The notes: generated from the letters alone by a model not told the origin. A stretch of 62,468 nt of DNA from Candidatus Limnocylindria bacterium (GCA_036570125.1 DATCPK010000068.1:1-62468); one strand, 5' to 3'. Counted from the stretch's first letter, positions 15,001 to 56,870 are shown. A program made the numbers and translations.

Positions 15001-18000
15001 TGAGCTTGTCGTTCGCGCGAACCCGCACGCTGTGACCGGCGACGATCGTTCCGTTGACGGCCGCGAATGTGCCTGGCTGAACAGGGGTCGCCTTGATGGC
15101 GTTGCTCGCGGTGGATCCGTCGCTCGGCGCGCGCGCCGCGATCGTCGAAGAGGACGCGGTCGTCGTCGTGCTGATCCGGTTGTTCGTGATGACCTCGTTG
15201 TCGTTCTGCTGCCAGTCGGTCGCGTTCGCGGCCGGGGTCATCGTGCGGCGAGCGAGGGGCACGTCCCCGGTCGCCTTGTAGTAGTGGACCGTCGTCCCAT
15301 CGTCGTAGCTGACGCGCGCGCCGTTCAGGTACGCGGTCCCCGATACCCACGCGGTCGGCGTCGATGCGGACGAACCCATGAGGACGTTCTTGTAGCCGGG
15401 CGCGCCGCCCGAGTCGTCGCCGGACGCGGCCGTGTCGGCGCTGCCCTGCGCGCTGCCACCCTTCGAGACGCCGACCCATTCGTCGAGGTTCTCCCGCGGC
15501 CGCTTGGTCGTGTTCGGATGGCTCTTGCGCGCGATGTAGTGGTTCGCGGTGTCGTGGCTCTCGGCCGAGTTGCTCGAGTCGTAGTCGACGACCTCGGTGT
15601 CCACCGCGTAGTCGGTCCCGGACACCCAGTTCGCCGCGCTCGCGTTGCCGCTGCTTCCGTCGGCGGGCGCGAGCGAGTTCGTCTCGCCTTCCCACTCCGC
15701 GGTGTTGCTCGGGTCGGAGAGCGGCCGCTCGACCTTCGCCGCGTACGTCTTGGCGGGCGAGCCGAACGTCACGACGTCGCCCTTCTTGTAGTAGACGTCC
15801 TGATCCGAGCTGTTCGCCGTCGTGGTCGACCAGGCGCCCCGCTGGGGACCGGCCGGGGCGTCGTGATAGGTCGTCGTGGCCTGGGTGCCGATGCTCCACA
15901 CCGAGACCGAGCCCGCGACGCCGACGAAGCCGCCGCCGACGCTGACCGCGTAGGTCGAGACGTCCTTGCGCGACAGCGCGTTGACGTCGACGTTGTTCGC
16001 GGCGTTCACGAACGAGCCGTTCCCGATGTACGCGGTCACGCTCGAGTTCGCGATGCCGATGTCGATGCCGCCGGCGACTCCGACGAATCCGCCGGCGACG
16101 CCACCCGCGACGGTCAGCGACTTGAAGCTGTCCACCGCGGTCACGTTCACCGACTGCGTCAGGCTCGTCGTCGAGCGCTGGTTGATCCGCGCGTTCTCCG
16201 CGATGAACGCCGCCGTGCCGACGGCGATGAGCGTGACGCCGACGCCGCCGGCGACGCCGACGAAGCCGCCACCGGCGCTCGCCGCCAGACCGAAGATGTT
16301 CTCGAGCGAGCTCGCCTGCACCGCGAGGCCGTGGAACTCGCTCGGCGCGGCCTCGTTCTCGTAGGTGCCGAACCCGGAGTCGGTGATGCGTCCGTCGTGC
16401 ACGCCGACGATCGGCGTTGTCCCGTCCTGGGCGCCCGCGTCGACGCTCGAGTTCTGGCCGATGAACGCCTGCGTGTCTTTGTCGACCTTCGCGACGCCCA
16501 CGGCCACGCCGACGCCGACGTAGCCACCCGCGAGGCTGGCGGTGATGAGCAGCAGCTTCGTGCCGTCGCTGGCCGAGATGAGGACGTTGTTGCCTGCAAC
16601 GATCGTCACGCCGGAGGACGCGTTGTTGCAGCCCTTGCCATCGTCCGTCCACTGGCCGACGCACGCGAACGTGTGGGTCTTCAGGATCGTCACACCGATC
16701 GTGCCGGCGACGCCGACCTGACCGCCAGCCGCGCCCGCGACGATCGCGATGATCGAGTTCGTCGCCTTCGCCGTGACAGAGACGTCCTTCGCCGCGTTGA
16801 CCCACGCGCCGTCGTCGATGTACGCGTCGGTGTTGAGGGTCACGACGTGCACGCCGACCCCGACGCCGACGCCCGCGGTCCCGGCGACCGCGATCGTCGC
16901 CGCGATCGAGAGCTCGTGGTACTGGTTACCGGCCGCGACGCGCACGGACTGCTGCGGGTCCGCACCTGCGACGTTCGTCGCGCACGTCGTGTCGCAGTTG
17001 ACCTTCGCGTCGCTGCCGATGTGCGCCGTGGTGTTCGCGGTGACGACGGCGACCGCGCCGGAGATGTTGACCGCGGCGGTGCCGGCGAATCCAGCGCTGA
17101 CGCCCACCGCGGCGATGTCGTCGCTGTTCGTCGCGGTGACGCTCACGCCCCTGAACGAGTCGGCGAGCGGTGTGATCGTGCGCGGGCCCATCTCGCTCGC
17201 GTCACCCGCGGGCTGCGACCCCGACTTCACGATGCTGTGCGACCGGCCGGTGCCGTTCGACGAGCCGAGCGCGATCGCGTGGACCGCGAGCGGCGTCGAG
17301 CAGGGACTGTCCGACGGTCCGGCGAGGCCGGTGTCGCAGAACGTCGCCGCGAGCTTGAGGCTGTTGGGACCGGTCTTGATCGCGTAGTAGGTCGCGCCGT
17401 CCACGAGGCCGGCGATCGGATCGCCGCCGCCGGAGCTGTAGACGACCTTGTCGCCGGTGACGACCGCCGCGAACGTGTAGGGCAGGTTGATCACGTCGCC
17501 CGAGCGGTCGACTGCCGGATCGAACCGCGGCGACTTGTCGGCGCGCACGCCGGCCGCGTTCGTCGGCACGAGGCGGTGGCTTTCGCCATACAGCACCCCG
17601 CCGGCGAGCGAGTTGAGGTGGATCGGGTTGACCGTTCCCGGGCAGGCGGCGTCGCCGGCGTGGCCGACCGCGTCGCAATACGTCTCGGCAAGCTGCACGT
17701 GCTGCGAGTCAACGACGATCACGAAGTACGCGTGCCCGTCCTTGAGGGTCGTGCCGCCGCCGCTCGTGTCCGCGGGGATGCTCGCGGCGTTCGACGTGTC
17801 GACGCCGTTGTCGTACACGACCTCCTGGCCGTTCGTGAAGCCGTGGTCGAAGCCGAGGTTGATCGTGTCCAGCGTTGTGTTGATCGACGTCGATGACGGG
17901 GTGAAGCGCGTGTCTCGCGGCAGCACGCTGAACCCGCCGGTCATGACGAGCACGCCGGCGTGGCCGGCCGCGCTGACGTTCGCGTTGTCGCCGATCGACG

Positions 18001-21000
18001 CGTGGGTGTTCTTCGTGACGACCGGGACCGCCGCGGCCGCGCCGACAGCGGCCGTGCCGCCGCCGCCGATGTTGCCGCCGATGACGTCCATCTTGAGCTG
18101 CTCGTCTGCCGCGACGCGGACGCTGCCCTGGGCCCTGACGGCCGCGCTGTCGGTCGACGAGAAGTTGCCGACGATCGAGGCGGTCGTCGTGATGTCGTAG
18201 ACGGAGACGCCCACGTTGACGTTCACCGAGGCCGTGCCGCCGAATCCGCCGCCGACCGCGAGCGACATGACGTTCTCGCTCGACGTGGCGTCCACCGTGA
18301 CGTTGCCGGCGACGATCGCATTCGTGTTCTGGCCGATCCACGCCTTGGTGCGCTTGGTGATCACCTCGACGTCGACACCCGCGCCGACGCCGGCCGTACC
18401 GCCGATCGCGAGAGCGCCGGCCAGGCTCATGATCTTCGTCGTGTCGGTCGCCGCGACCGCGACGCCACCGCTCGGGGTCGTCGTGCTGCCGATGGTGACG
18501 TGGTCGTCGATGTGCGCGGTCGTGTCGTTCGTCATCACGTTGACGACGACCGAGCCCGCGACGCCGGCCGATTCACCACCAGCGCCACCGACCACGATCG
18601 CGGTCACGTCCTCGTCCTGGGTCGCGGTGACGGTGACACCGGTCGCGCCGTTCGCCGCGATCGTCGCGTACGAGTGGATCGCCGCGTCGACTCGGCTCGG
18701 CCGCACGAGGACGACGCTCGAGACACCGACGCCGGAGCTCGTGCCGAAGGCGACCGCGCCCGCGTAGAGCTCGATCTTGTTGGCGGTGTCGCTCGCCGTG
18801 ATGGTGAGGTTGCCGCCCGCGCGCACCGTGGTCGGTTGAGCGCTCGTGCTGTCGACGTACGCGTGCGTTCCGCTGTCCATGCCGCTCTCGGCATTCGGGT
18901 CGAGGACCACGACGATGATCGAGGCAGCGAGGCCGAACCCGTCGCCGCCGACGCCGATCGTCGCGGCGAAGGCGAGGATGCGCTCGATGCGGACCGCGGT
19001 GATCGTGATGTCGCCGGCGGCCTTCACGTTCGCGCCCTTGCCGATGTACGCGCGGGTGTCCTTGTCGATGACCGCGACGTAGAGGCCGACGCCCACGCCG
19101 GAGCCGCCGGTCGAAACGCCGAGCCCGCCGCCGCCTGCGACGAGGTGCGTGTCGTCGGTCGCGCTGATCACGATGTTCTGCGCCGTGCCGGCCGTGATCG
19201 TCTGGTTCACGGAGGCGCCGTCGCCGATGTACGCGCGCGTTTTCAGGTCGAAGATGTCGACCACCGCGGAGGCGCCGACCGCCGCGTCACCGGTCCCCGC
19301 GCCGCCGGCGATGCCGATGGAGGTGACGGACGGGCCGTCGTTGATGATCGGCAGGATGATCTGGAGCGGCGAGATCGACGACGACGCGGTGACACTGAGG
19401 GTCTCGCGAACGTTGACGATCGCGCCGGCTTCGATGATCGCTTCGGTCGTGATGTCCTCGAGAACGTTGACCGCGACCGCGGCGCCGACGCCCGTGCCGC
19501 TTCCGCTCGAGCTGCTGTAGGCGAGAGCGCCCGACGCCGCGATGTTCTGGAGGCCGATCGGCGCGGTCGCCGCGACGGTCATCGCGCCGGTCGACGTGAC
19601 CGTCGCGTTCGCGCCGACGGTCGCGCGGTTCGAGAGGTTGATGATGTTCACGCCGATCGACGCGGCGACGGCCGTGTCCGACTTGCCGCCCGCGGCCGCG
19701 AGGCCCCAGACGATGAAGTCATTGCGCTCGCCGGTCGGGGTGATCGCTTCGACGGTGACGCCGACACCGGTGACGATCGCATTCGCGCCGATCCTCGCGG
19801 CGTTGCGCGCGTCGACGTAGTTCAGACCGACCGCCGCGCCGACGTTCTTCGAACCGGACGAGCCAGACCCGCCGCCGCCGCCGGAGCCGCCGCCTGAACC
19901 GCCGCCGCCACCGCTACCGGAATCGCCGGAGCTGGTCAGCTCGGAGAGCGTCGGGATCTTGACGCTCGTCGCGGTGCCCTTTGCGGTCGCGTCGGTCTGG
20001 TTCTGCGCGCTGATCGTCACCGCGCCGGTGCGCGCCGTGACGGTGAGGCCGTCGAGGATCCGCGCCGTATTCGTCGAGATGACGACATTCACGCTGATCG
20101 CGGCGGCGACGCCCGTGCCACCCGAAGACGTGCCGGACTGGCCGCCCGAGGTCGAGCTCGCCTGGCCCGTGCCCGAGCTGGAGGACGGCATCGAGAATCC
20201 GGAGAGTCCGCCGCCGGATCCGGTACCCGTGTTCGGGTTGTCGAAGAGCGACGACGTCGCGTCCTCGTCCGCGGTCTTGGTGCACTTCGCGTGACCGGCG
20301 GTGCCGCACTGCGGGTCGTCGTTGTCCTTGCTCGCGTTACCGGTCGTGCCCGCCTTCGTCGAGGCAGAGCTGTCGATCGCCGATCCGGAGGCGATCGTGA
20401 CCGAGGTGCCCTCGAGGTTGCGCGCGGTCTCGGCGAGCGCGTTATCGATGACCACGTTCACCGCGATCGCCGCGCCGACCGCGACGTTCGGGCCGCCGGC
20501 CTCGCCGTCGCCGGTCGACCAGTTGCGCAGGGTGCGCGTCGCGCGGATCTCGATCGACCCGGTCGCGTTGATCCCGGTGCCCGTGCCGGCGCGCGCCGTC
20601 GTGTCGGAGAGGACGACCGCGACCGCGACGGCGGGACTCACGGCCGTGTCGCCGGACGCGCCGGCCTGGACGTTCGTGTCGACCGCCTGCGTCGACGTCG
20701 CGCGGATCGCGTAGTTCGCGCCACCGGTGACCACGGCGCCGTCTTCGATCTCAGCGCGGGTCAGGTTCGGCGTAATGATGTTGAGCGCGATCGACGCGCC
20801 GACACCGGTGCTGCTGTTGCTGCTTCCACCGCTACCGCTGCTGCCGCCGCTGGTCAGCTGCTGCTTCGAGTTCGCGGTCGCGACGTCCGTGCGGTCGTTC
20901 GTCGCGATGACGGACACGTTGCCGGTGCCCGCCGCGACGACCGCGCCGCTGCGAACGACGGCCTCGGTCTTGTCGAGGACGTAGTTGAGAGCGAAGGAGC

Positions 21001-24000
21001 CGGCGACGCCGACGCCCGCGCTGCCGGCGCCCGAGACGGACGCCGCGACGAACTGGTGCGTCGCGTCGCCACCGACGGTCGTCATGGTGGCCTCGACGTC
21101 CAGGCCGTTCGAGGTGATCCGCGTTACCCCGGTCGACGCGTAGTTGATGACATCGGCGTAGTTCACGGAGATCGCCACGCCGACACCCACGCCCTTGCTG
21201 CCGCCGCTGCTGCTTCCGCTCGAGCCGCCTGTCCCGCCGGTGTCACCCGTTCCGCTGCCGGTCCCGCCCGTTCCGCCACCGGTGCCACCGGTGCCGCTGC
21301 TGCTCGAGCTGCCGCTGCTGTCGGCTGGGATCGAGACGGCGGAGCCGTCGGTCTGCGCGCGCGCGTCGGTGTTCGCGGACGACCGCACGCTCACCAGGCC
21401 ACCCGAGCTGATCAGGAGTCCGTCGGCGAAGAAGGCGCGCGAACGCGTGACCGCGATATTCACGGCGATCGCCGCGCCGATCGCGATCGGACCGCTCGAG
21501 GTCGAGGTCTTCGCGCTCGAGCCGTCGCCGCTCGTGCTGCTGCCGCCGCCCTGACTTCCGGTATCCGACGCCTTCGTGTTGCCGAGGTCGCGCTGATCGC
21601 CGACCTGCTTCTCGACGCCGCCGCTCGCCGCGCCGGTCGTCGCGTCGCCGGGTGCGCCGCGCGAGCTCGCCGTCGCGTCGCTCGAGGTCGCTGACGATCC
21701 AAACGCGAGAACGCTGATCGCGCCGACGGCGCTGACGTTGCGGTTGATCGACGCCTCGACGTTGTGGTGCGCGATGGTGAGAGCGAGCGCGACGCCGATC
21801 GCCACGCTCTTGCCCTTGGTGTCGCCCTGCGCGTCGGTGAACGCCGCTGCGGTCTGCTCGGCCTTCACCAGGACGGCGCCGGTGACGTTGAGCGCGGCGC
21901 CGCCCGCGACCGTCGCGGTCGTGGTGACGTTCGAGATGATGATCGCGATCGCCGGAGCGATCGTGACGTTGCCACCGAACGCGCCGGTCTTCGCCTTCGT
22001 CGTGTCGGCGTGCGTCGTGGTCGCCCCCACCGTGACGTTGCGGCCGCCATTCAGCGTTCCGTTCAGCGACGCGGTCGTGGTGTCGTTCGCCACGACCACG
22101 ACGACCGACGCACCGACGCCGACGCTCGACGAGCCACTCACGCCACCGAGCTCGTTCGGCAGCGCCGTGTTCACCGCGGTCGTGTTGGAGGTCGCGACGA
22201 TCGAGACATCGTCGGTCGCGCCCACCGTGAGCGTCCCGTCGAGCGAGGCGATCGTGTCGATCTTCTCGATGTTCACCGCGACCGAACCCGCGACGCCGAC
22301 GGTGCCGCCGCCCGCGCCGCTCGTCGCGCTCGCGCCGAGCTCGTGGGTCGACGCCATCAGCGCTTCGAGAGTCGCGCCCTTCGCCGTGACGACGGCGCCC
22401 GCGGGCAGGATCGCGGTGTTCGTGATCTGCGCGTAGTTGATCGCGACCGCGACGCCGATGGCGACGGACGTCGAGCCGCCGCTGCTGCTGCCGGAACCGC
22501 TGGAGCCGCCGGTGCCGCCACCCGTGCCGCCGCCGGTGCCACCCGTTCCACCGCTACCACCGCTGCCGCTCGAGCTCGAGCTGCTGCTCGCGCTCGCGTC
22601 GGGCGGCTGGACCGCGCTGCCGTCGGCGGTCGCGCGCGAGTCGGTGTCGGCCGAGGTCGAAAGGGTGAAGCGGCCGCCGCGCGCGAATACGGTCACCGCA
22701 CCGATCGTCGCGATCGAGGTCGTCTTCGCGAGGTTGATCGCGACGGCCGCGGCGACCGAAACGCCGCCCGACGATGTGTCGGACGACGGCGTCTCGTTGG
22801 CGTCGCTCGTTCCCTTGCCGCCGTTGCTCGTCGACGTCGTGTTGGCGTAGCTGCGCTCGCCCTGGACCTGCTGCGTGACGCCGTTGCCGCTGTTGCCGCC
22901 GCTCGTCGTGTTGTCTCCGGGCGCGCCCGCGGCCGATGCCTTCGCGTACGCGGAGCTCTCCGACTTGCCGTGCGCCGCGAGCGACACGGAGCCGGCCGCG
23001 TCGAGGTTCCGGAGGAGCGTCGTCTCGGTGCGGTGGTTCGCGATAGTGAGCGCGAGCGCGACTCCGACCGCCGCGGTCTTGGCGTCCTTCGCGTCGCCCT
23101 CCGCCTCGGTGTTCGCGGAAGCGGTCTGGTCGGCGCTCGCGGTGAACGATCCGGTGATAACGAGGTCGTTCCCGGCGCCGACCGTGGCCATCGTCGTGAT
23201 GTTCGAGATCGCGATCGCGACGGACGGCACGACGGCGACCTTGCCACCGGCCGCGCCGGTCTTCGCGCGTGTCGTCATTCCGTGGAAGGTCGACGCCGTG
23301 ATCGTCAGGTTGCCTCCGCCGATCAGGGTTCCGGTGAGCTCCGCGGTCGTCGTGTCGTCGACGAGCGCGACCGCGACGGACGCGCCGATGCCGACCGACG
23401 AAGCGCCGCTGACGCCGCCCGTCGACTCCGACGGAAGAGCGCTCGTGCCCGATGTCGCGTCCGACGCGGCTGCGACGGATACGTCGCCGGAGCCCGCGTT
23501 CAGCCAGCCGCCCAGGGCCGCGGTGGTCTGGATGTTCTCGATCTCGATGGCCACCGAGCCCGCGATGCCGACCGCGCCTCCGCCGGCGCCGCTGGTCGCG
23601 GATGCGCCGAGCGCGTGCTGCGAGTGCATGAGCGCGGTGATCGATGCGCCGTTCGCGCTCACGGTGCTGTCGGATGGAGCGCGCGCCTCGTTCGTGATCC
23701 GCACGTAGTTGATGGCAACGCCGACGCCGACCGAGACGCCGCTCGAGCTCGAATCGCTCGGCGAGCCGCTCGATCCGGTCGAGTCCGCAGGCGCGCTCGC
23801 GTCGCTCGGCCGCACCGCGCTGCCATCGGCGAGCGCGAACGCGTCGGTGTCGGCGGTGGTCGCAAGGGTGAAGCGACCGCCCGACACGATCGTGACGGGG
23901 CCGATGGTCGCGAGCGAGATCGTCCTCGCGAGGTTGATCGCGACCGCCGCCGCGACGCTCACGCCGCCGGACGATGTGTTCGACTTCGGCGTCTGCTCGG

Positions 24001-27000
24001 CACCGCCGTCGCCGTTACCGCCGTTGTCCGTCGACATGCCGCTCGCGAACGACCGCTCGCCCCCGACCTGATTGGTGACACCGTCGCCCGCGCTGCCGCC
24101 GCTGCTCGGATCCGCTGGGGCGGCGGCGGCGGACTCGTCCTGCGGCGCGCCTGCGGCCGACGCCTTCGCGGTCGCCGATGTCTCTGATGTTCCGTTCGCG
24201 ACGAGCATGACCGCGCCACCCGCGTTGAGGTTCCGCCAAAGCGTCGCCTCGGAGCGGTGGTTCGCGATCGTGAGCGCGAGCGAGACGCCGATCGCCGCGG
24301 TCTTGCCCTTCGCGTCTCCTTCGGCACTCGTGTTCGCTGACGCGGTCTGGTCCGTGGTCGCGCTGAACGCGCCGGTGATGACGAGCGGCGTCCCGACGCC
24401 AACGGTCGCCAGCGTCGTGATGTTCGAGATGACGATCGCAACGGACGGCACGACGGCGACCTTGCCGCCCGAGGCGCCGGTCTTCGCGTGCGTCGTCGCG
24501 TAGTGCGTGGTGCCGGCTGCGATCGTGAGCCTGCCGCCGCCCACGAGGGTCCCGAGGAGCTGCGCCGTCGTGGTGTCGTCGATCACAGCGACGGCCACAG
24601 ATGCGCCGATACCCACGGAGCCGGCGCCGATCGCGCCGCCGGTCGATTCGGACGGCAACGCGCTCGTGCTGGTCGTGGAGTCGGAGGCTGCTCGGATGGA
24701 CACATCGCCGGTGCCGGCGTTGAGCCAGCCTTCGAGCGATGCACCCGTCTGAATGTTTTCGATCTCGATGGCGACGGAACCCGCGATCCCGACCGCGCCG
24801 CCGCCGGCGCCGCTAGTCGCGGATGCGCCGAGTGCGTTCTGCGATGTCGTGAGCGCTTCGATGGTCGCGCCGTGCGCGCTCACGGTGCTGTCCGGGGGCG
24901 CCCTCGCTTCATTCGTGACGCGGACGTAGTTGATCGCGACCGCGACGCCGATCGAGACACCCGATGTCGAGTCAGTCGGCGAACCGCTCGAGCTGCCTGA
25001 TGTCGAATCCGCCGGCGCGCTCGAATCGCTCGGTGCGCTCGAGTCCCTCGGCGCCTGCACCGCGCTGCCGTCCGCGGTTGCGTGCGCGTTGGCGTGCGCA
25101 GAGCTCAAGAGCGAGAAGAGACCCGTCGCCGTGACGACGATGCCGTCGATCACCGCGCGGGCGATCACATTGGCGAGGTTGATCGCGACCGCCGCAGCGA
25201 CGGACACGCCGCCGTTGGAAGTCTTCGCCTCGGGCGTGTTCGCGCCATCGCCGGTCCCGCTGCCGCCGTTATCCGTCGACATGCCGCTCGCGAACGAACG
25301 CTCACCGGCGACCTGGTCGCTCACGCCGCTGGAGGCGTGACCCGTCGAATCGGTCGGGCCTGCTGCACCGGATTCGTCCTGCGGCGCGCCGGCGGCCGAT
25401 GCCTTCGCGGTGGCGGACGTGTCCGAGGATGCGTGCGCCGCGATGGTGACCGCGCCGACCGCGATCAGGTTCCGCGAGAGCGTCGCCTCTGCGCGGTGGT
25501 TCGCGATGGTGAGCGCGAGCGAGACGCCGATCGCCGCCGACTTGCCCTGCGCGTCGCCCTCGGCTGTGGTGTTCGCCGACGCGGTCTGGTCGGCCGTAGC
25601 GCTGAACGAGCCGCCGATGGTGAGCGCGCCGCCGCCGGAAACCGTCGCGAGCGTCGTGATGTTCGAGAGCGCGATCGCGACGGACGGCACCACGGCGACC
25701 TTGCCGCCGGATGCGCCGGTCTTCGCCCGAGTCGTCATGAGGTGGGTCGTTCCCGCGACGAGGGTGACGTTGCCGCCGCCGATGAGCGTTCCGGTGAGCT
25801 TGGCGGTCGTCGTGTCGTCGACGATCGCCACCGCGACCGATGCGCCGATACCCACGGAACCTGCGCCGATCGCGCCGCCGGTCGATTCGGACGGCAACGC
25901 GCTCGTGCTCGTGGTCGAGTCGGATGCGGCTCGGATGGAAACGTCGGCGGTCCCCGCGTCGAGCCAGCCCTCGAGGGAGGCCGACGTCTGGATGTTCTCG
26001 ATCTCGATGGCGACGGAGCCCGCGATCCCAACCGCGCCGCCGCCGGCACCGCTCGTCGCGGATGCCCCGAGTGAGTTCTGCGATGTCGTAAGTGCTTCGA
26101 TGGTCGCGCCGGTCGCGCTCACGGTGCTGTCCGGGGGCGCCCTCGCTTCGTTCGTGACGCGGACGTAGTTGATAGCGACGGCGACGCCGATCGAGACGCC
26201 CGATGTCGAATCGGTCGGTGAGCCGGTTGATCCGCCGGAGGTCGAGTCCGCCGGTGCGCTCGAGTCTCTCGGCGTCTGCACCGCGCTGCCGTCGGCGGTC
26301 GCGTGCGCGTTCGCGTGCGCCGAGCTCAAGAGCGAGAACAGACCGCCGGCGACCACGACGATGCCGTCGATGACCGCGCGTGCGATCGCCTGCACCAGGT
26401 TGATCGCCACCGCCGCCGCGACCGACACGCCGCCCGAAGACGTCTTCGCCTCTGGTGTATTCGCGGCGTCGCCTGTCCCGCTGCCGCCGTTGCTCGTCGA
26501 CATGCCGTTCGCGAACGAACGCTCTCCGGCGACCTGGTCGGTCACGCCGCTCGAGGCGTGTCCGGTCGAGTCGGACGGCGCCGCGGCGCCGGACTCGTCC
26601 TGCGGTGCGCCGGCCGCGGAGGCTTTCGCGATCGCGGACGTGTCCGAAGAACCGTTCGCGGCGAGCGTCACCGCGCCGGTCGCGGTCAGGTTCCGTTGGA
26701 GAAGCGCTTCGGTGATGTGGTTCGCGATCGTGAGCGCCAACGAGACGCCGATCGCCGCGGACTTGCCCTGTGCGTCGCCCTCGGCCGTCGTGTTCGCGGA
26801 TGCCGTCTGATCGGCGGTCGCGCTGAACGATCCGGTGATCACGAGCGGCGCGCCCGGCGTGACGCGCGCGATCGTCGTGACATTCGAGAGAGCGATGGCC
26901 ACGCTCGGCACGACCGCGACTTTGCCGCCCGACGCGCCGGTCTTCGCGTGCGTCGTCGCGAGATGCGTCGTGCTCGCCGCGATCGCGAGATCGTTCGCGC

Positions 27001-30000
27001 CGGTCAGCGTTCCGCTGAGCTCGGCGAGCGTGGTGTCGTCGATGATCGTGACCGCGACCGACGCGCCGATGCCGACGGAGCCGACGCCCGACACGCCCGC
27101 TCCCTCAGGAAGCGCGTCGGTGGTCGTTTCCGAGTCAGCCGTCGCGGTGATCGCGACGTCGCCACCACCCGCGATGAGCGTTCCCGCGATTTGCGCGGTC
27201 GTCTGGATGTTCTCGATGTCGATCGCGACGGATCCGGCGATGCCGACTGCGCCGCCGCCCGCGCCGCTGGTGGCGGAGGCGCCAAGCGTGTTCGTTCCGT
27301 CGTCGGTCATCACGGCCTCGATCGTCGCGCCGTTCGCGGTGACCGTCGCGCCCGCGGGGAGGATCGCCATGTTCGTGATGCGCACGTAGTTGATCGCGAC
27401 GGCCGCGCCGATCGTCACGCCGGACGACGACGAATCGCTCGGCGCGCCTGCGCTCCCGGTGCCGCCGGAGCCCGAATCGAACATGCCGCTCGAGCCGTCA
27501 TCCTCGTCGCTCTCGTCTTCGTCGACGCCGAAGATCCCGGCGGGCGTGTTGCCCACGCCGCCGCGCTCGGAGTCGGCGGCGTCGGTCTCGTCGGCCGCGT
27601 TCTCCGCGGCAGCCGACCGGCCTGCGCTTCCGTCCGCCGTCGCCTGCGCGCTGGTGAGTGCGGAGCTCGAGAGCGTGAAGAGGCCGCCGGCGTGGATCGT
27701 GATCACGCCGATCGTCGCGAGCGAGATGGTCTTCGCGAGGTTGATCGCGACCGCGGCCGCGACGTTCACGCCGCCGCCCGAGGTCGATGCCGCGGGCGTG
27801 CTCTCGGCGTCGCCCGAACCATCGCCGCCGTTCGCGACGGAGGTCTGCGATGCGAATCCGCGCTCGTGCTCCACCTGATCGCTCACGCCGTTGCCGGGGT
27901 TACCGCCACCGGACTCGTCCTGCGGTGCGCCCGCCGCCGATGCGACCGCGCTCGCCGAGGTGTCCGACGAGGCATGCGCGCTGAGCGAGACCGCGCCGCC
28001 CGCGTCGAGGTCGCGGTAGAGCGTGGCCTCGGTGCGGTGGTTGGCGATCGTGAGCGCGAGCGAGACGCCGATCGCAGCGCTCGAGCCCTGCGCCGAACCT
28101 TCCGCGCTCGTGTGAGCAGATGCGGTCTGGTCGGCGCTCGCCGTGAACTCGCCGTCGATGTCGAGCGCGTCGCCGGCGCCGACGGTCGCGATCGTTGTGA
28201 TGTTCTCCAGGGCGATCGCGACGGACGGAACGATCGCGACCTTGCCGCCCGCGGCGCCCGTCTTCGCGTTGGTGTTTGCGAGGTGCGTCGTCAATGCGGC
28301 GATCTCGAGGTCGTTGCCGTTCTGCAGCGTTCCGATGAGCTCGGCGACCGTGAGGTCATCGATGAGCGCGACCGCGACCGATGCGCCGATGCCAACGCTC
28401 TTCGCGCCGGTGACGCCACCGGTCGCCGCGGCCGGGAGCGCCTCGGTCAGGGACTCTGCATTCGAAGCCGCCGCGATCTTCACGTCGCCGCTCCCCGCAT
28501 CGAGCGAGCCCGCGAGTGACGCGACGGCGTGGCTGTTCTCGATGTCGATCGCGACCGAGCCCGCGATCCCGACGGCGCCGCCGCCCGCGCCACTCGTCGC
28601 CGAGGCGCCGCGTGCGGAGAGGCCGTCGTCGGTGACGACCGCTTCGATCGTCGCGCCCTGCGCGTGGACCGTCGCGCCCGCCGGCAGCGTCGCGTCATTC
28701 GCGGTGCGCGCGTAGTTGATCGCGACCGCCGCACCGATCGAGACACCCGAGGTCGAGTCGGTAGGCTGCACGGCGCTACCGTCCGCGGTCGCCTGCGCGT
28801 CGGTGTCGGCTGAGCTCGAGAGAGTGAAGCGACCGATCGCGTGCACGACGATTTGGCCGATCGTCGCGCCTGCTGTTTCCTTCGCGAGGTTGATCGCGAC
28901 CGCGGCTGCGACATCGACACCACCGCCGCTGGTCGATGCGCTTGGCGTGCTTGCGGCGCCGCCTGAACCGTCGCCGCCATTCGCCACGGACGTGTCGTTC
29001 GCGAACGTCCGCTCGCGTCCGACCTGCTGATCGACGCCGTCGCCGGCCTGCCCGCCCTCGGTGCTCCCCTGCGGAGCGCCCGCGGCGGACGAGCGCGCGG
29101 TCGCCGAGCTACCCGACGCGCTGTGCGCGCCGATGGTGACGTCAGCGCCCGCGTCGATGTCGCGCAGGAGTGTCGCTTCCGCGCGGTGGTTCGCGATGGT
29201 GAGCGCGAGCGATACCCCGATCGCGGCGGACGAACCCTCGGCGTCGCCGAACGCCGTCGTGTGCGCGGACGCGTTCTGGTCCGCGGTCGCGCTGAAGCTT
29301 CCGGTGATGGTGAGAGCGGCGCCCGCGCCGACCGTCGCCGTCGTGGTGACGTTCGAGAGCGCGATCGCGACCGAGGGAACGACCGCGACCTTGCCGCCGG
29401 CGGCGCCGGTCTTCGCAGCCACCGTCGCTTCGTGCTTCGTCGACGCGGCGAGAGCCAGGTTGCGCCCGCCGGTCACGGTGCCGGAGAGGTCCGCGGTGGT
29501 CTTGTCATCGATCAGGGCGACGCCGACCGACGCGCCGATGCCCACCGAGCCCACGCCGGTGACGCCCGCGCCCGTCGGCATCGCTTCGGTCGCGCTCGTC
29601 GTGTTCGACGCGGCCGCGATGCGGATGTCGCCCGTGCCTGCGTGCAGCGTGCCCGCGAGCGATGCGCTCGTGTTGATGTTCTCGATCTCGATCGCGACGG
29701 ATCCTGCGATGCCGACCGCGCCCCCGCCGGCGCCGCTCGTCGCGGACGCGCCGAGCTCGTTCTGCGAGCCCATGAGCGCTTCGATCGTCGCGCCGTTCGA
29801 GTCGACCGTCGCGTGCTGCGGCAGTACGGCCTCGTTGGTGATCCGGGCGTAGTTGATCGCGACGCCCGCGCCGATCGATGCGCCCGTCGTCGGATCGGCC
29901 GGCGCTCCGGCGCCACCGCTCGTGTCGCTCGGGTCGCTCGCATCGCCCGCGCCGCGCGTGGCACTGCCGTCGGCCGTCGCGTGCGCGTCGCTATCGGTGG

Positions 30001-33000
30001 ACGTCGAGAGGATGAACCGGCCGCCCGCGATCACGTGGATATCGCCGATCGTCGCGCGCGACTCCGTCTTCGCGAGGTTGATGCCGACCGCTGCCGCGAC
30101 CGACACGCCGCCACCCGACGTCTTCGCGGCCGGAGTGCTCGCGGCGCCCGAGGTGCCGCTTCCGCTGTTGTCGGTCGACGTGTTCGCCGCGAACGTGCGC
30201 TCGCGCGCGACCTGCTGATCGACGCCGTCGCTGGGCTGCCCGCCTTCGGTCGAATCGCCGGGCGCGCCCGCGGCGCTCGCCTTCGCGGTCGCGTCGCTGT
30301 CCGACGAGCCGTGCGCGCGGAGCGCGACCGAGCCATCCGCCGTGATGTCGCGGTCGAGGGTCGTCTCGGTCTGGTGATTCGCGATCGTGAGCGCGACCGA
30401 CGCGCCGATCGCCGCGGTCTTGGCCTTCGCGCTGCCCTCGGCCGTCGTGCTCGCGGACGCGGTCTGGTCCGCCGTCGCATAGAAGCTCCCGGAGATGTCG
30501 AGCGCCGTGCCGCCCGAGACCGTCGCGTTCGTGGTGACATTCGAGAGCGTGATGGCGACGCTCGGCGTGATCGCGACCTTACCCGCCGCGCCTGTCTTCG
30601 AGTGCGTCGTCGTCGCGTGCGTCGTGCTCGCAACGAGCGTGAGGTCGTGACCGCCGTCGATCGTGCCGGTGATCTCGGCGGTCGTCGTGTCGTCGACGAT
30701 CGCGAGCGCGACCGATGCGCCGATCCCGGTCGGACCTTCGTCGGGCGCGGGCTGCGGGATGTTGATGCGGACGCGCCACACACCGCGGCCCTGCGTGCCG
30801 ATGTAAAGGTCGAACGAATTCGCGGTCAGGTGATCGAAGTACGCGAATTCCGGACGCGACAGGTTCGGCACACCCGAGACATCCGACGTCAACGGATCGG
30901 TAATGAGCGTCCAATTCTTACCCGCGTCGACGCTGAGGAACACACCAGAGTCGCGGCCGCCGGCCACGACGTTGTTCGGATCCTTCGGGTCGAACGCGAC
31001 GAGCGATGGCTGCGGGTAGCCGAGGACGCCATTGAATCCGGTGATCGGCGAGATCGTGCTGAAGTTCCCGAACCCGCGCTGCGTCGTGTAGCGGAACGCG
31101 CCGTTGCCGGTCATGAGCGTGTCGAGCTCCGGATCCGTGTTCCAGGTCAGACCGGCATCGGTCGAGAAGACCATTCGCGGACCGGTCGCGCTCATGTTCG
31201 ATGCGTAGAGGCGGCTCGAGTTGCTCGCGTCGACCGCGAAGATGCCGACGCCGCCGGCCTGTCCGTCGGTGTTGTCGACCTGCGTCCACGCTCCACCCGC
31301 GGTCGCGCCGGTGTAGCGCCAGAGCTGGTCGCCGTTCGTGCCCATCGTCCGCTCGTTGCAGATGCCGGCCTGGATGTAGAGGGTCGGCGTGCCTGGGCGG
31401 CCCGCGGTGTCCGCGACGGTCACTGCGCACGCATTCGCCGGGCTCCCGGGAAGCGGCGTCCAGATGACGGGAGTCGCGGTGATGTCGGTCGTCACGTAGA
31501 CGCCGCTCGACGTGAGGATCACGTACTGCTTATCCGCGAGCCGACCGATCGCCTCGCTCGCGCGGAAGCCGACGATCTGACCCGGCGGCTGCGACGCGGC
31601 GGGGAGCTGACCCGCACCCGCGAGACCAGGACCGCTCATGAAGAGGACGGTCTGTCCTCCGTAGCAGCACGAGGTGTAGAGGACGCGGTTGGCGTCGGCC
31701 GAGAAGTCGAACACGTCGCAGCAGTCCGGGTTCTGCCATGTCGGGGTCGCGGCACCGGCGTTCGTCGTTCCCCACGAGCCGTCGTCCTGCACGCCGAAGT
31801 AGAGGTCCTCGGCCAGAGCGCCGGGACGGTGGACGCCGGCCACCGCGAGCAGCCACAGCGCGTGCGGTGTCGTGATCGGCTGCTCGAACTTCGGGTTCTG
31901 GCAGTCGGCGCCGGCGTCGGTGTTGCGATACACGCCGCCGTCCGACGCGAGGATCTTCGGGCATGCGTCGGTCGCGGCCTGCGTGTCGAACACGAGATCG
32001 CCGAGGTCGTCGTGCGCGCCCTGCGTCGCGGGCGCCGGCAGCGCCGCACGGAACCGCGTGAATGGGCCGACCCAGGTGTTCGCGGTCGGGCATCGCGGGC
32101 CCGCGATGAACGAGGTGCAGCCGGCGCGGAAGAGGCTCACATCGCCGAACCACAGATCGAACACGTTGTTCGCGCCGACGTTGGCGCGCTGGTTCGTCAC
32201 GACGAACGGAATGCGTCCCTGCTGGTTCGCGCCGGCGACGTTGAACTCACGCGACCACGTGACGCCCGCGTCATCCGACTCGAAGAGGCGCAGGCCGCTC
32301 ACCGCGAAGATCACGTTCGGTTCGTCCGGCGAGACCGCGATCGAGCACGGCCCAAGCGGCAGGCCGCCGGAGCCGATCGCGCCGCCGATCCACGTCGCCC
32401 CGCCGTCGGTGGAGCGGAAGTGGCCGTCGTCGCCGCAGATGTCGACGATGCCGTTCGCGCCGCCGCTCTGTACGACGATGTCCCACACGTCGCTCGCGGG
32501 CGTGAGCGGTGTCGGGTCGACGAAGTGCCACGTCACGCCGGAGTCGTTGCTGATCGCGACGCCGCAGTCGGTGCCGATGAAGACGTTGTTCGGCGCGTCG
32601 GGACGGATACCGATCCCCATCGCCGAGGGCTCGCTGATGTTCGCCGCTGGGCAGTTGAACCCACCGGCCGGCGTGGCGGTCGCGGGATGCGTCCATGTCG
32701 TCCCGCCGTCGGTGCTCACGTTGATGCCGGCGATGCTCGCGACCCGGCCGTCGTAGAACGACGTCGCGTACACACGCTGGATGTTGCTCGGGTCGACCTC
32801 GACGTCCCACGTCGCGAGCGGCTTGTGCCCGGAGAGGAACGTCCAGTGCTGGCCGCCGTCGATCGTCTTGTAGATGCCGCCCCACTCCGTCGCCGCGTAG
32901 AAGATCAGGTTGTTGCCGGCGACCGACGCGAGGTTGTTGACGCGGCCGCCCGACGCGCCGTCGGGGTCCGTCGAATCGCTGGGCGACGAGCTCGGGTTGA

Positions 33001-36000
33001 TGTCCGTGAAGCCGCCCACCGTGAACGGCGGAGGCGTCGGCGCGGCCGCCGGGTTGTGAACGATCTCGGCGGGCAGCGCGGTGACGTCGCCCGACGTGTT
33101 CGACGCGGCGAAGATCACGATGTTGCCCGTCCCGGCGTGGAGCGTCCCGGCGACGGATGCGGTCGTCTGGATGTTCTCGATGTCGATCGCGACCGAGCCA
33201 GCGATGCTGAGCGAGCCGCCGCCGGCGCCGCTCGTCGCCGATGCGCCGAGCTCGTGCGTCGAGGCCATGCGCGCTTCGAGCGTCGCGCCGTTCGCGGTCA
33301 CCGTCGCGCCGGTCGGAAGGATCGCCTCGTTGCGAATGCGCGCGTAGTCGATCGCCACGCCCGCTCCGATCGACACACCGGTCGTCGAATCGACGGGAGC
33401 GCCCGCGCCGCCCGTGGAGTCGGCGGGCGCGCTCGAGTCGACCGCGTTGCGGACCGCCTGGCCGTCGGCCACGGCGTGCGCGTCGGTTTCGGCGGAGGTC
33501 GAGAGCGTGAAGCGACCGACCGCGTTGACCACGACCGCGCCGATCGTCGCGAGCGAGCTGGTCTTGGCGAGGTTGATCGCGATCGCGGCCGCGACGGAGA
33601 TGCCGCCCGCCGATGTCGCGGCGTGCGGGGTGGCGTCGGCGCCGCTCGCGCCGCTACCGCCCGTCGTGCTGTCGGTCGCGCTCGCGAAGCTGCGCTCCTT
33701 CTGGACCGTTTGATCCACGCCATCGCCTGAGCTTCCACCGCCGGACGCGTCCCCCGGCGCGCCGGCGGCAGAAGCGGTCGCGGTTGACGAGGTGTCCGAG
33801 GACCCGTGCGCGGCGAACGTCACCGCCCCACCTGCGGTGAGGTCGCGCGCGAGTGTCGCCTCGGTGCGGTGATTGGCGATCGTGAGTGCGAGCGAGAACC
33901 CGACCGAGGCGCTCGCGCCCTTCGCGTCGCCCTCGGCGTTGGTCAGGGCAGACGCGGTCTGGTCGGCGGATGCTGCGAGCGATCCGCCGATCGTCATCGG
34001 CGAGCCCGTGCCGACCGCAGCTGTCGTGGTGATGTTCGAGAGCGCGATCGCGACGGCCGGGGCAATCGAGACGCCGCCGCCCGACGCGCCGGTCTGGGCG
34101 TCGGTGCTCATGTCGTCTGCGGCGCTCGCGCGAAGGGTCAGGTCGTGGCCGGTGATCGTCGCGCCGTCGGCGACCGAGGCGGTCGTCGTGTCGTCGACGA
34201 GGTTCAGGGCGACCGAGGCGCCGATGCCGAGCTTGCTCGCGCCGCTCACGCCGCCGTTCGCGGGGAGCGCCTTCGCGATCGACTGGGCATTGGAAGCCGC
34301 GGAGAGCTCGATCGAGCCCGCGCCTGCCGCGACCGTCCCGGTGACCGTCGCGTGCGTGTCGAGATGGACGATGTTGATGGCGAGCGAACCGGCGAAGCCG
34401 ACCTTGCCGCCCCCCGCACCCGAGGTCGCCGTGGCGCCGAAGTCGTGACGACCGTCGCCTGCAGCTGTGACCAGCGCCCGCACCGTTGTCGGACCGTTTG
34501 CCGTTCCGGCGACCGTGGCGGAGTTGGTGACCGTCGCGTAGTTGATCGCGACCGCTGCCCCGATGTTCGTGCCCGACGGGGGACCCCTCGCTGTGGTCGC
34601 GCTGCCGTCGGCGTTCGCCTTCGCGTCGGAGCTCGCCGAGGACCAGAAGCTCAGGCTTCCGGCGCTCACTGAGACGTCCGCGGGGAGGCTCGAGCTCGAC
34701 GAGGTCTTCAGAATGTTGATCGAGACCGCGGCCGCGACGCTGATCGCGCCGCTCGATGAGTTCGCAGGAGGCGTGGCCGGGGCCGAGTCGCCGCTCCCGC
34801 CGTTCGCTGAGCGCACGCCGGTCCCGAACGAACGCTGGCTGGCGACCTGTTGGTTCACGTCCGGCGTGCCGGACCCTTCGGCGGCCGCGCCGTTCGCGCT
34901 GGCCTTCGCGTCGGTCTCGGTCCCGGAGGCGCCCGATGCGCCGAACTCGACGCTGCCAGCGGTGGAGAAGCTGCTACGGGTGGTCGCCGTCACGGAGTGG
35001 TCGGCGATCCCGAGCGCGAGTGCCGCGCCCACGGAGGTGTTCGTGCCCTTGGCGTCGCCCTGGGCGTGAGTCGTCACTGGCGCCGACGAGTCGGTCGCGG
35101 TCGCGACGAGGTTGCCGGTCATGGCGAGCGAGACGCCCGTGCCGATCGACGCCTCGGTGCTGAAGCCCGAGTAGGTGAAGGCAACGACCGGGGTGATCGC
35201 GGTCCCGCCGGCGGCGCCGCCCTGGGCGGTGGTGGCGACGGTGCGGTCGCTCGTCGCGTCGAGCGTGAGGTCGTGCACCGTCACGGTCGACCCGTCCTCG
35301 AGCACCGCTCGCGTGTCGTCGTCAACGATGTGCACGGCGACCGAGGCGCCGATGCCGGTCTTCGCGCCGGAGGAGCTGTCCTCGGCGGCGGTGGCGGCGG
35401 CCGTGCTGTCGAGCGCCGAGTTCGCGACGAACCGCATGTCCGTCGTGGGCGAGCCGCTGACCGTCGCGTCGTGCTGGACCGATGCGGTGGTGTCGAGGCT
35501 GACGACGTTCACCGCAAGCGATCCGGCGAAGCCGACCTTCGTCGCGTCGCCGACGCCGGACGTCGACTGGGCCTCGAACGAGCCACGCGTCGGCGTGATG
35601 GCCTCGACGGTCACGCGGCTGGCATGCAGCGTGGCGCTCCCGAGCTGCGCGCTCGTCGTTACGTTCGCGAGGTTCACGGCGATGGCGACGCCCACGCCCG
35701 AGGCGCTCGAGTCGACCGGGCTGCCGTCGGCGATCGCCGACGAGCTCGCGGTCGACGCCGCGTGCACCTTCTGTTCGCCCGTCGTGGTGATCGAGAGCGC
35801 CGTGTCGCTGCCCACCTTCGCGCTGGTATCGCCGTGCAGGCGACTGAAGGAGAGGGCGCCGGCGTAGGTCAGGCTGCCCTCGCTCGTCCGCGCGTTACCG
35901 CCGGTGCGGTCGGACGGCGACTCGTCGTTATTCGTCGATCCACCGGGGCTCGCCTTCGACCAGCTCGTCACACGGCCATCCGAGTCCGCGGACACGGTCG

Positions 36001-38689: not shown

Positions 38690-38896
38690 GACGAAGGACC
38701 GCCATTCGGCGGCCCCGATCGTCAGCGATGAATCGCTCCGCGACCCGTGCAAGTAATGCGGAGCGATCAATAAGTGCTGATAAGCCCCACCAGGCTTCCC
38801 CTTCTCTCACGTGCGCTGCGCGCCTTCCCCTAAACGCGACGCTGCGAATCATGCGGTGCGGGTAACGGTTACGCAACAGAAATCTCAAAAGAATTT

Positions 38897-43966: not shown

Positions 43967-44551
43967 ATGAATAGGACTAACTGGACGTGGCGCACGGTCG
44001 ACATCGTCGTCGCCGCGGCGATCGCGATCGCCTTCGGCGTCGTCTTCTGGGCGTGGAACCAGGTGTGGGCGGCCGCGACCCCGGCGTTCGTCGCGATCCC
44101 GCCGGCGCAGAACATCCTCTACGGGGTCTGGCTCGTTCCGGCCGTGCTCGCGGGACTGATCATCCGCAAGCCCGGCGCGGCGCTCTTCACCGAGCTCGTG
44201 GCCGCGAGCGTCTCGGCGATCCTCGGATCGCAGTGGGGCCTCGACGCGGTCGTGTCCGGTGCGCTCCAGGGGCTCGGCGCCGAGATCGTTTTCCTGGTCC
44301 TGGGCTACCGCCGCTGGACGATCACGGTCGCGCTCATCGCGGCGATCGGCACGGCCATCGCCGCCTGGGTGCACGACACACCTCTTTATTACGCCGATAT
44401 CGGGCTCACCGCGCAGCTCGTGATCCTCGCCTTCATGGTCGTGAGCGCGATCGTCATCGCAGGGATCGGCTCATGGCTCCTCATGCGGTCACTCGTGCAG
44501 ACGGGAGTACTCGCTCAGTTCCCGGCCGGCCGGGCGCAGCAACGGGTCTGA
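43967..44551 (+). CDS. ykoE: ECF-type transporter substrate-specific (S) component, YkoE-like (HMP/thiamine)
   Basis: A ~195-aa polytopic membrane protein, MNRTNWTWRTVDIVVAAAIAIAFGVVFW.... GGAGG at 43954-43958 lies 8 nt before ATG 43967. Its position in a TPP-riboswitch operon with a duplicated ATPase and a T component matches ykoEDC. Confidence 0.75.
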   Translation: MNRTNWTWRTVDIVVAAAIAIAFGVVFWAWNQVWAAATPAFVAIPPAQNILYGVWLVPAVLAGLIIRKPGAALFTELVAASVSAILGSQWGLDAVVSGALQGLGAEIVFLVLGYRRWTITVALIAAIGTAIAAWVHDTPLYYADIGLTAQLVILAFMVVSAIVIAGIGSWLLMRSLVQTGVLAQFPAGRAQQRV

Positions 44552-45951: not shown

Positions 45952-46685
45952 GATTGCTCGAACCCCTCACGCCGGATCCTCGTGCGCCGCTCGCGCACGC
46001 GCACCCGCTCGCGAAGATCGCGGCGGCGTTCGTGCTCATGCTCGCGCTCTTCATCACGATCGACCCGCTGACGCCGACCCTCGTGCTCCTTGCGGAGATC
46101 GCGGCGGTCCCGCTCATCGGGATCCCGGCGCGCGCGCTCCTTCGCCGCGCGCTACCGGCGTTCATCGGCGCGATCGGAATCGGGATCTTCAACGCGCTCT
46201 TAAGCGGTGACATCACCGGTGGCGTCGCGATCGGACTTCGCCTTGTGGGCATCGCGCTCGCCGGCATCGTCGCGGTCGCGAGCATCGACCCGACCGACCT
46301 GTCCGACGCGCTGGTCGAGCATCTTCACGCTCCACGCCGTTTCACGGTCGGCGCGCTCGCCGCGTTCCGCCTCATGCCGCTCTTCGCGGACGAGTGGCAG
46401 ACGATTGCGATGGGTCGCCGCGCCCGCGGTCTCGATAACGGACGCGTGACCGCGTTCTACCCCATGACCCGATCGCTGCTCGTCGCCGCGATACGCCGCG
46501 CGACGCGACTCGCGACCGCGATGGACGGCCGCGGCTTCGCGGATCCAGGGTGCCGGACGCTCGCGCGGCCGCGAGCCATCTTGCCGCGCGATTGGGCACT
46601 CATCGCGGCCGCGATCGGAGTGGCCCTGGGCGCGACGGCGACCAGCGTGGCAATCGGCAGTTGGCGGTTCTTCCTTACGGGCTAG
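45948..46685 (+). CDS. ykoC: ECF transporter transmembrane (T) component, CbiQ/EcfT family
   Basis: Track ORF of 245 aa. It is polytopic and carries the family's conserved Arg-rich loop (AMGRRARGLD...RRATRLATAMDGRGF). Its GTG start overlaps the ATPase stop. Confidence 0.82.
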   Translation: MRLLEPLTPDPRAPLAHAHPLAKIAAAFVLMLALFITIDPLTPTLVLLAEIAAVPLIGIPARALLRRALPAFIGAIGIGIFNALLSGDITGGVAIGLRLVGIALAGIVAVASIDPTDLSDALVEHLHAPRRFTVGALAAFRLMPLFADEWQTIAMGRRARGLDNGRVTAFYPMTRSLLVAAIRRATRLATAMDGRGFADPGCRTLARPRAILPRDWALIAAAIGVALGATATSVAIGSWRFFLTG

Positions 46686-56860: not shown

Positions 56861-56870
56861 TGCGTTTGGT

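Follow-up and report, generated by a model that had tools for sequence, protein, structure and literature searches.

The stretch examined here, 62,468 nucleotides from Candidatus Limnocylindria bacterium (GCA_036570125.1, DATCPK010000068.1:1-62468; hereafter the window), carries on its minus strand a giant gene whose protein has a 755-residue domain inserted into a surface loop of one of its own repeat modules. The domain is predicted to fold as a double beta-propeller similar to the glycoside hydrolases of family GH74. We propose that the protein is a giant extracellular fibre and that the nested double propeller is its ligand-recognising head, which most likely binds a glycan and may also cleave it. 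We give this reading as a whole a probability of about 0.6.

An earlier note on this stretch, made from the sequence alone, had placed an Asp-box beta-propeller at 30760-33030, inserted into a loop of one stalk repeat and not fused to a terminus. The location was sound, the 755-aa core at 30761-33025 agreeing with it to within a few nucleotides, but the coding strand is the minus strand. In a six-frame search the peptides quoted in that note were found on it at 33109-33065 (AASNTSGDVTALPAE) and 30727-30665 (GIGASVALAIVDDTTTAEITG). The insert between them comprises 779 amino acids (aa), positions 1915-2693 of the giant protein and 30728-33064 (-) of the window. It begins about 1,900 residues from the N-terminus, some 15% along the visible protein. 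The gene, the host module and the insert are arranged as follows (pLDDT, predicted local distance difference test).

2..38770, minus strand: giant open reading frame (ORF), at least 12,923 aa, 3′ end beyond the window, likely start TTG at 38770
33065..33418, minus strand: host module, N-terminal part, giant aa 1797-1914, ending in ...VIFAASNTSGDVTALPAE; aligns with intact-module positions 1 to ~118
33026..33064, minus strand: entry linker IVHNPAAAPTPPP, Pro-rich, 13 aa; pLDDT below 50 at insert residues 1-8
30761..33025, minus strand: core of the inserted domain, giant aa 1928-2682, 755 aa; 14 four-stranded blades predicted (AlphaFold2, DSSP)
30728..30760, minus strand: exit linker IPQPAPDEGPT, Pro-rich, 11 aa; pLDDT below 50 at insert residues 776-779
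29888..30727, minus strand: host module, C-terminal part, giant aa 2694-2973, starting with GIGASVALAIVDDTTTAEITG; matches intact-module positions 127-413

The stalk modules are about 410 aa long and were detectable from aa ~440 to ~12,900. Successive copies of their GIGASVA motif are 376-440 aa apart (mostly 407-440), the sole exception being an interval of 1,167 aa across the insert. When eight modules were aligned with MAFFT, both flanks of the insert fell in register with a contiguous stretch of the other seven, in which ...ALPSESTGGAIGAGSV runs directly into GIGASVAV.... At this site an intact module reads, for example, ...ALPSE-STGGAIGAGSV-GIGASVAV.... The insert sits exactly between ...ALPAE and GIGASVA..., in place of a variable loop that measures 13-21 residues across modules and homologs. 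BLASTP with an intact module gave the same picture, its positions 1 to ~118 matching upstream of the insert and 127-413 immediately downstream with 62.5% identity. One intact module (aa 4190-4602, window 25001-26239 (-)) was also modelled with AlphaFold from 72 aligned sequences (pLDDT 88.7; predicted template modelling score, pTM, 0.83). The model shows strands of about 20 residues in a long-short-long pattern plus one helix, and the insertion point falls in a low-confidence loop (117-128) between strands 100-116 and 129-148. The two flanks are thus homologous to one contiguous paralogous unit; the boundaries of the guest match those of an independent domain, whose free-standing homologs span insert residues ~19-768.

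Identical junctions were found in four further sequences, from at least two other assemblies and one of unstated source. Two are contigs of a single metagenome assembly: L006, 22.7 kb long, with an ORF of at least 6,205 aa that is colinear with the window protein, and L007. The others are a fragment of a soil Actinobacteria metagenome-assembled genome (MAG; L001/P0058, GCA_005885305.1) and a further fragment, P0156. In pairwise comparison, identity among the window, L006, L007 and L001 is 79-85%; for the window and L006 it amounts to 82.5% in the insert and 77-80% in the flanking stalk. The exit linker is nearly identical in L006, L007 and L001. The entry linker has another sequence in L006 and P0156, but its 20-aa distance to a conserved DINP motif is kept. 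A scan of genome contigs yielded no ortholog, only a 47%-identical protein from a Micromonosporaceae MAG. The recurrence of the same insertion at the same junction in four relatives shows that it is real and maintained. Together, the module alignment, the loop in the module model and the identical junctions support a whole-domain insertion into the loop of one repeat and no terminal fusion, as the earlier note had proposed.

The window protein has one stalk module of about 400 aa more than the 80%-identical L006 (aa ~4000-4400, window ~25600-26800 (-)). This is repeat copy-number variation. The module model found no fold match in the PDB with Foldseek, the best hit being the FapC amyloid at E 3.4. 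Because Foldseek is weak on repetitive beta folds, we regard the module as a new fold only provisionally. Homologs of the stalk module were rare (63 hits, mostly fragments), and the named ones came from Gaiellaceae MAGs, a Microbacterium and marine MAGs.

Fold and family of the inserted domain

The insert carries seven Asp boxes, six of the strict form S-x-D-x-G-x-x-W and one of the form T-x-D-G-G-x-x-W. In the other 12,156 residues of the protein the strict pattern occurs 0 times and a relaxed pattern once. The boxes and the other motifs of the domain are listed below with the predicted blades in which they lie.

32843..32866, minus strand: Asp box 1, TIDGGQHW, blade 1
32693..32716, minus strand: Asp box 2, STDGGTTW, blade 2
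32528..32551, minus strand: Asp box 3, SNDSGVTW, blade 3
32390..32413, minus strand: Asp box 4, STDGGATW, blade 4
32255..32278, minus strand: Asp box 5, SDDAGVTW, blade 5
32204..32221, minus strand: QGRIPF, blade 6, with GRIPF at aa 2197-2201; Q282, G283, R284, I285, P286 and F287 of the insert each at least 90% conserved
31664..31723, minus strand: two vicinal Cys-Cys pairs, aa 2362-63 and 2380-81, among the 14 family-conserved Cys
31142..31165, minus strand: Asp box 6, STDAGLTW, blade 12
30911..30934, minus strand: Asp box 7, SVDAGKNW, blade 13

Scanned alone against Pfam, the insert matched BNR with 39.8 bits (cut-off 27, E 1.5e-10) and Sortilin-Vps10 with 34.2 bits (cut-off 33). Pieces of 4,761-4,900 aa had returned nothing, BNR included, so that the insert needed to be scanned alone. 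The insert holds 14 of the 48 Cys of the protein (1.8% of its residues, against 0.28% elsewhere), and all 14 are conserved in its family. The stalk has no Cys before aa 6167. Its C-terminal two-thirds carry 17 close Cys pairs, adjacent or 2-15 residues apart (aa 6167-12535, window ~1200-20300 (-)). The earlier note had described the boxes as seven copies of SxDxGxTW, the insert as Cys-rich unlike the stalk, with two vicinal pairs, and the only GRIPF as mid-domain with no N-terminal FRIP. Seven boxes are indeed present, but one starts with Thr. The difference in Cys content holds against the N-terminal 6,100 aa of the stalk and not against the C-terminal stalk with its Cys pairs. The only RIP motif does lie in blade 6; QGRIPF there resembles the sialidase RIP motif in sequence only.

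An AlphaFold model of the insert, based on 58 aligned family members, reached a pLDDT of 88.7 and a pTM of 0.91, with low confidence only at both ends and in one loop, and DSSP counted 14 four-stranded blades in it. In a Foldseek search of the PDB with this model, ranks 1-25 were all GH74 chains (E 1e-22 to 2e-18, template modelling score, TM, 0.36-0.59, identity 14-17%). Other double propellers ranked far below, and no sortilin or sialidase was among the top 50 matches. A viral structure library gave poor matches only (TM at most 0.31). A search of the PDB with the single sequence returned one weak SorCS2 hit only, and a family profile was needed; with hhalign, the probability of a match to GH74 was 98.3% over blades 1-4 and about 88% over the last blades. 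GH74 enzymes consist of two seven-bladed Asp-box propellers in tandem, 7+7 (PMC2716378). Because the model has 14 blades and its top matches are GH74 chains, the insert core is read as a GH74-like tandem propeller, the 7+7 split being read from those matches. The earlier call of an Asp-box propeller was borne out by the predicted blades, the BNR match and the fold matches. Where that note had left it to structure prediction whether one or two propellers form, the model points to two of GH74 type. Among the homes it had named for such a domain, the GH74-like one stood and the sortilin-, sialidase- and Ycf48-like ones did not.

Two assignments were rejected. Ycf48/HCF136 proteins are single seven-bladed propellers of about 330 aa, and their models scored too low on the insert (17.2 bits with PSII_BNR, whose cut-off is 27, and 17 bits with NCBIfam Ycf48, whose cut-off is 326). 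Membership of GH74 at the sequence level was not upheld either. Identity was only 14-17%, and the family profile met GH74 chains of the PDB only via individual blades (best E 1.6e-16); the libraries searched contained no GH74-specific model. Insert residues 545-685, which comprise blades 11-12 and an irregular stretch (DTLMTGNGAFRY), resemble blades 5-7 of the GH74 N-terminal propeller (hhalign 94%), out of colinear order. Blade shuffling or convergence may lie behind this likeness.

Homologs of the insert numbered 1,971 at 90% clustering, the best being 50-62% identical over 96-98% of its length, and an exhaustive search gave 361 clusters at 50% identity (E at most 1e-30). Named sources include Gaiellaceae, Acidobacteriota, Saprospiraceae, Desulfobacterales and Kaarinaea. 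Family proteins are normally surface proteins of 750-1350 aa in which the propeller is an N-terminal head on an immunoglobulin (Ig)-like stalk. The domain starts within residues ~15-110 in nearly all of them and is followed by PKD, DUF11, CARDB, ASH/HYDIN, HYR or Big_13 repeats, sometimes by an OMP beta-barrel. A same-family propeller lies internally, at residues 912-1680, in the 4,612-aa protein P0190, which has RTX repeats and CARDB; it is not visibly within a repeat. Searches of profile libraries found no curated family model that covers the domain. The NCBIfam F510_1955 glycosylhydrolase family gave a weak hit (90 bits against a cut-off of 175), and the sole paper found on F510_1955 is an annotation without function. 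The family is widespread, uncharacterised and disulfide-rich.

Binding, hydrolysis and other readings of the insert

We suggest that the giant gene encodes an extracellular fibre protein with a stalk of ~410-aa beta-rich modules built from strands of about 20 residues. In one module, the variable surface loop between two long strands has been replaced by a complete 755-aa domain, the predicted double propeller, which two short linkers rich in Pro (13 and 11 aa) connect to the stalk. Because the rest of the module is preserved on either side, the propeller would be expected to stick out laterally from the fibre. The 14 family-conserved Cys and the hydrophobic segment near the N-terminus of the protein point to an extracellular location. 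A head that is joined to its stalk by end-fusion elsewhere in the family would here have been recruited by nesting. It would be the ligand-recognising part of the fibre, most likely binding an extracellular glycan in the cleft between the propellers and possibly cleaving it.

Two positions that are catalytic Asp residues in GH74 bear on whether such a head binds or hydrolyses.

32885..32887, minus strand: Glu1974 (insert E60, motif ATEWGG), in the GH74 first-catalytic-Asp column; E60 at least 90% conserved in 58 family members
31784..31786, minus strand: Asp2341 (insert D427, motif FGVQDDGSW), family-invariant; candidate counterpart of the GH74 second catalytic Asp, without statistical support

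The family motif fYaAsEwGG was aligned with YARTDIGG of GH74 by both HMMER and hhalign (96.5% with a small GH74 profile; 98.3%, E 1e-14, with a 50-sequence profile over blades 1-4). The PDB entries 2cn2 and 2cn3 (D70A mutant) differ exactly in the aligned column, which identifies it as that of the first catalytic Asp (D70 of Xgh74A; invariant D73 in alignment A5). In the insert this residue is Glu. The second catalytic Asp of GH74 lies in an invariant G-D-I-G-G-F in the first blade of the second propeller (D480 of Xgh74A; D491 in A5). By blade count, the corresponding blade of the insert carries an invariant F-G-x-Q-D-x-G-S-[FW], in which Q426, D427 and G429 are invariant. A local profile alignment pairs the two blade for blade (EDLYFGVQDDGSWG with EAVLASGTGDIGGFI), though weakly (E 0.29), and in the global and alternative alignments by hhalign GDIGGF falls on insert positions that are not conserved. 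Four routes to placing the second Asp failed: a search of the PDB with a C-terminal-half profile; hhalign against a GH74 profile of first 2 and later 50 sequences; alignments made globally, over sub-regions or as alternatives; and a comparison of the N-terminal with the C-terminal half, which paired blades 1-3 with 11-13 and not 1 with 8. The registers compete because the blades resemble one another. The caution in the earlier note that binding is as plausible as catalysis therefore stands, given the Glu in the first column and a second Asp that could not be mapped.

The context favours a binding head. True GH74 enzymes are partnered with CBM3, X2, CBM2, dockerin or SLH modules; the insert family is partnered with Ig-like stalks and anchors, and no sugar-utilisation genes were found in three gene neighbourhoods of free-standing homologs. 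We put ligand binding at roughly even odds, hydrolysis distinctly lower, and some function other than these two lower again. Several observations weigh against a fibre with a binding head. Sequences from different phyla share 50-60% identity, which is more than is usual for the head of an adhesin and suits an enzyme no less well. The invariant residues, taken to mark the functional site, cluster most densely in blades 6-9 (H351, D353, D375, Q426, D427 and D450, with D352 nearly invariant at 90% or more), and this tight cluster, together with the near-invariant E60 of blade 1, is more typical of an enzyme or of a very conserved ligand site. A carboxylate is kept at the first catalytic position of GH74. 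The three neighbourhoods shared no context and gave no functional hint either way, and our literature search found no experimental work on the propeller family. Any cell-wall anchor would lie outside the window, together with the C-terminus of the giant protein.

The best-placed alternative, which we hold to be possible but doubtful, takes the head for an active glycoside hydrolase with E1974 and D2341 as its pair in a GH74-like inter-propeller cleft, the fibre then being a scaffold for enzyme display and not an adhesin. That the best fold matches are all GH74, that a conserved Glu occupies the column of the first catalytic Asp and that sequence conservation across phyla is very high would all be expected of such an enzyme. 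So would the invariant Q-D-x-G in the first blade of the second propeller (by blade count), if it does match G-D-I-G-G-F. However, the first residue is not Asp, and the mapping of the second is undercut by its E value and by the global profile alignments. The F510_1955 hit points the same way as the fold, yet it scores far under its cut-off. The domain has no CBM or dockerin partner, and several Asp-box propellers, such as the Vps10 domain, are not enzymatic (PMC2716378). A more far-reaching reading holds that the head founds a new glycoside-hydrolase-like family with the GH74 fold, a Glu/Asp pair and disulfides, spread over many phyla in some 360 clusters at 50% identity, which these actinobacteria have nested in a giant fibre of unsolved module fold. 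The fibre would then be a bacterial surface filament of a new kind that carries an enzyme or a lectin on its side. We consider this rather unlikely.

It is highly improbable that the insert is a ten-bladed sortilin/Vps10 propeller with its Cys-rich 10CC module, or a six-bladed sialidase. The Sortilin-Vps10 match, just over its cut-off, spans 85 of the 446 profile positions (3-87). The domain does have 14 Cys and a conserved QGRIPF, and SorCS2 and a sialidase were hit weakly in sequence searches of the PDB. However, the sortilin hits are single Asp-box blades (E 0.07-0.9), and the sialidase (GH33) hit is one Asp-box stretch (E 1.9e-4). GH33 sialidases, which also have an Arg triad and a Tyr/Glu nucleophile pair, carry an N-terminal F/YRIP motif; the RIP motif of the insert lies in blade 6 and not N-terminal to the first Asp box. 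DSSP gives 14 blades in a double propeller, and 25 GH74 chains lead a fold ranking in which neither alternative reaches the top 50.

Least credible is that the junctions are an assembly chimera or that the insert is an intein or another self-splicing or mobile element. Giant genes made of repeats do tend to be misassembled, and the G+C content of the insert is slightly lower (0.686 against 0.71). However, the same junctions recur in four other sequences (79-85% identical where compared), the insert is in frame throughout, its termini are not of intein type (it starts with Ile and ends with Thr, followed by Gly), and the domain begins and ends where a free-standing protein family does. G+C content at third codon positions (GC3) is 0.90 in insert and stalk alike, and among the signs of recent transfer or recombination that were sought, neither junction microhomology nor a difference in codon usage between insert and stalk was found. 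Given the shared junctions, the equal GC3, the lack of microhomology and the entry linker whose length is kept, misassembly, recent transfer and an intein are excluded or very unlikely. We retain the fibre with a nested, ligand-recognising double propeller as the preferred reading.

The giant gene and its surroundings

The stop-free frame at 38806..2 (-) comprises 12,935 codons and runs off the edge of the window, so the gene is at least 38.8 kb long and incomplete. Compared with the ortholog in L006, protein conservation reaches 5′ of the first ATG (38689), up to 'LIAPHYL'. For this reason TTG at 38770 is, on sequence conservation, probably the likelier start. From the TTG, window 38627-38770 (-) encodes a charged region and then a hydrophobic segment resembling a signal or anchor. 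An N-terminal low-complexity linker rich in Pro, Ser and Thr (PSPSxTPEPSPS... repeats) follows at aa ~270-440 (window ~37490-38000 (-)). Outside the insert, Pfam gave no match in the giant protein, which was scanned in pieces of ~1,000 aa or less. Long plus-strand ORFs across 12000-38000 (e.g. 12914-17896 and 29123-33730) were rejected as shadow frames of the minus-strand gene. They are rich in Arg, Asp and Gly, as is typical of shadow frames in DNA of 70% G+C, and the G+C content of the window is about 70%.

The flanking genes are ordinary, comprising ABC/ECF transporter genes, a GAF histidine kinase and a beta-lactamase-like gene. Among them, none had an obvious tie to the secretion of a giant protein.

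43987-46685 and 47201-48070, plus strand: flanking genes, with a duplicated-ATPase ABC protein and a CbiQ-type permease (ECF-like) among the flanking products
51231-52886 and 55178-56974, minus strand: flanking genes; the remaining flank products, across plus- and minus-strand genes, are a single-ATPase ABC protein, a GAF histidine kinase and a beta-lactamase-family protein

Comparison with known systems

The case shows cleanly how, in nature, a very large domain (755 aa, two propellers) can be nested in the loop of a repeat module and kept through speciation. Such nesting helps to explain how giant surface proteins gain functional heads, and it marks a permissive insertion site for protein engineering. 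It also points to a widespread and highly conserved GH74-like family whose ligand or substrate is now directly testable, and draws attention to a 12,900-aa protein in which Pfam otherwise detects nothing and whose stalk fold lacks a solved relative.

The closest structural counterparts are the GH74 xyloglucanases and OXG-RCBH enzymes, represented by Xgh74A of C. thermocellum (2CN2/2CN3), the Paenibacillus odorifer enzyme (6MGJ) and an ancestral GH74 (6P2K). Like the insert, they have about 750 aa and 14 blades. The Asp boxes lie in strand 3-4 hairpins, the predicted fold matches at E 1e-22 with TM up to 0.59, the alignment is colinear over the first four blades and over the last two, and a carboxylate stands at the first catalytic position. 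Unlike them, the insert has Glu there in place of the invariant Asp, and its identity to them is only 14-17%. Its boxes are in blades 1-5 and 12-13, whereas those of GH74 are in blades 2, 3, 4, 6 / 2, 3, 4, 5, 6 (PMC2716378). It has seven potential disulfides, its partners are Ig-like stalks and anchors and not CBMs (carbohydrate-binding modules) or dockerins, and it is nested in another domain.

The insert's own family is found in surface proteins annotated as 'photosystem II stability/assembly factor-like' or 'TIGR01451 repeat' (P0001-P0120, among them Gaiellaceae PKD-domain proteins and a hypothetical protein of Kaarinaea lacus), which are 50-62% identical to it over 96-98%. They share its conserved Cys, E60 and the HDD, QD and GRIPF motifs. 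In these proteins the propeller is an N-terminal head after a signal peptide, followed by Ig-like repeats, whereas in the window protein and its close orthologs it lies within the loop of an unrelated stalk module.

Fibrillar adhesins project an adhesive domain on a stalk of tandem repeats (PMC9210967, PMC8286594). The window protein resembles them in its great length, repetitive stalk, single globular domain, N-terminal hydrophobic segment and a module copy number that varies between orthologs. It differs in that the globular domain is nested in a stalk repeat and not placed at the tip, and in that the stalk has none of the known Ig-like stalk domains and no Pfam hit. Adhesion is here putative.

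In autotransporter passengers, functional sub-domains such as domain 2 of Hbp/SPATE proteins protrude from a beta-helical stem. In the sialidase of Vibrio cholerae, lectin domains are inserted in the propeller (PMC2716378). Both share with the present case a folded domain that is inserted in a loop of a repetitive beta-scaffold and displayed laterally. Compared with the autotransporter sub-domains, the guest is here ten times larger (755 aa, two propellers) and the host fold is a different one with no PDB match. Compared with the sialidase, the roles are reversed, the propeller being the host there and the guest here. Domain nesting, GH74-like propellers and fibrillar surface proteins are thus known themes, which the window protein combines with an uncharacterised head family and an unannotated stalk.

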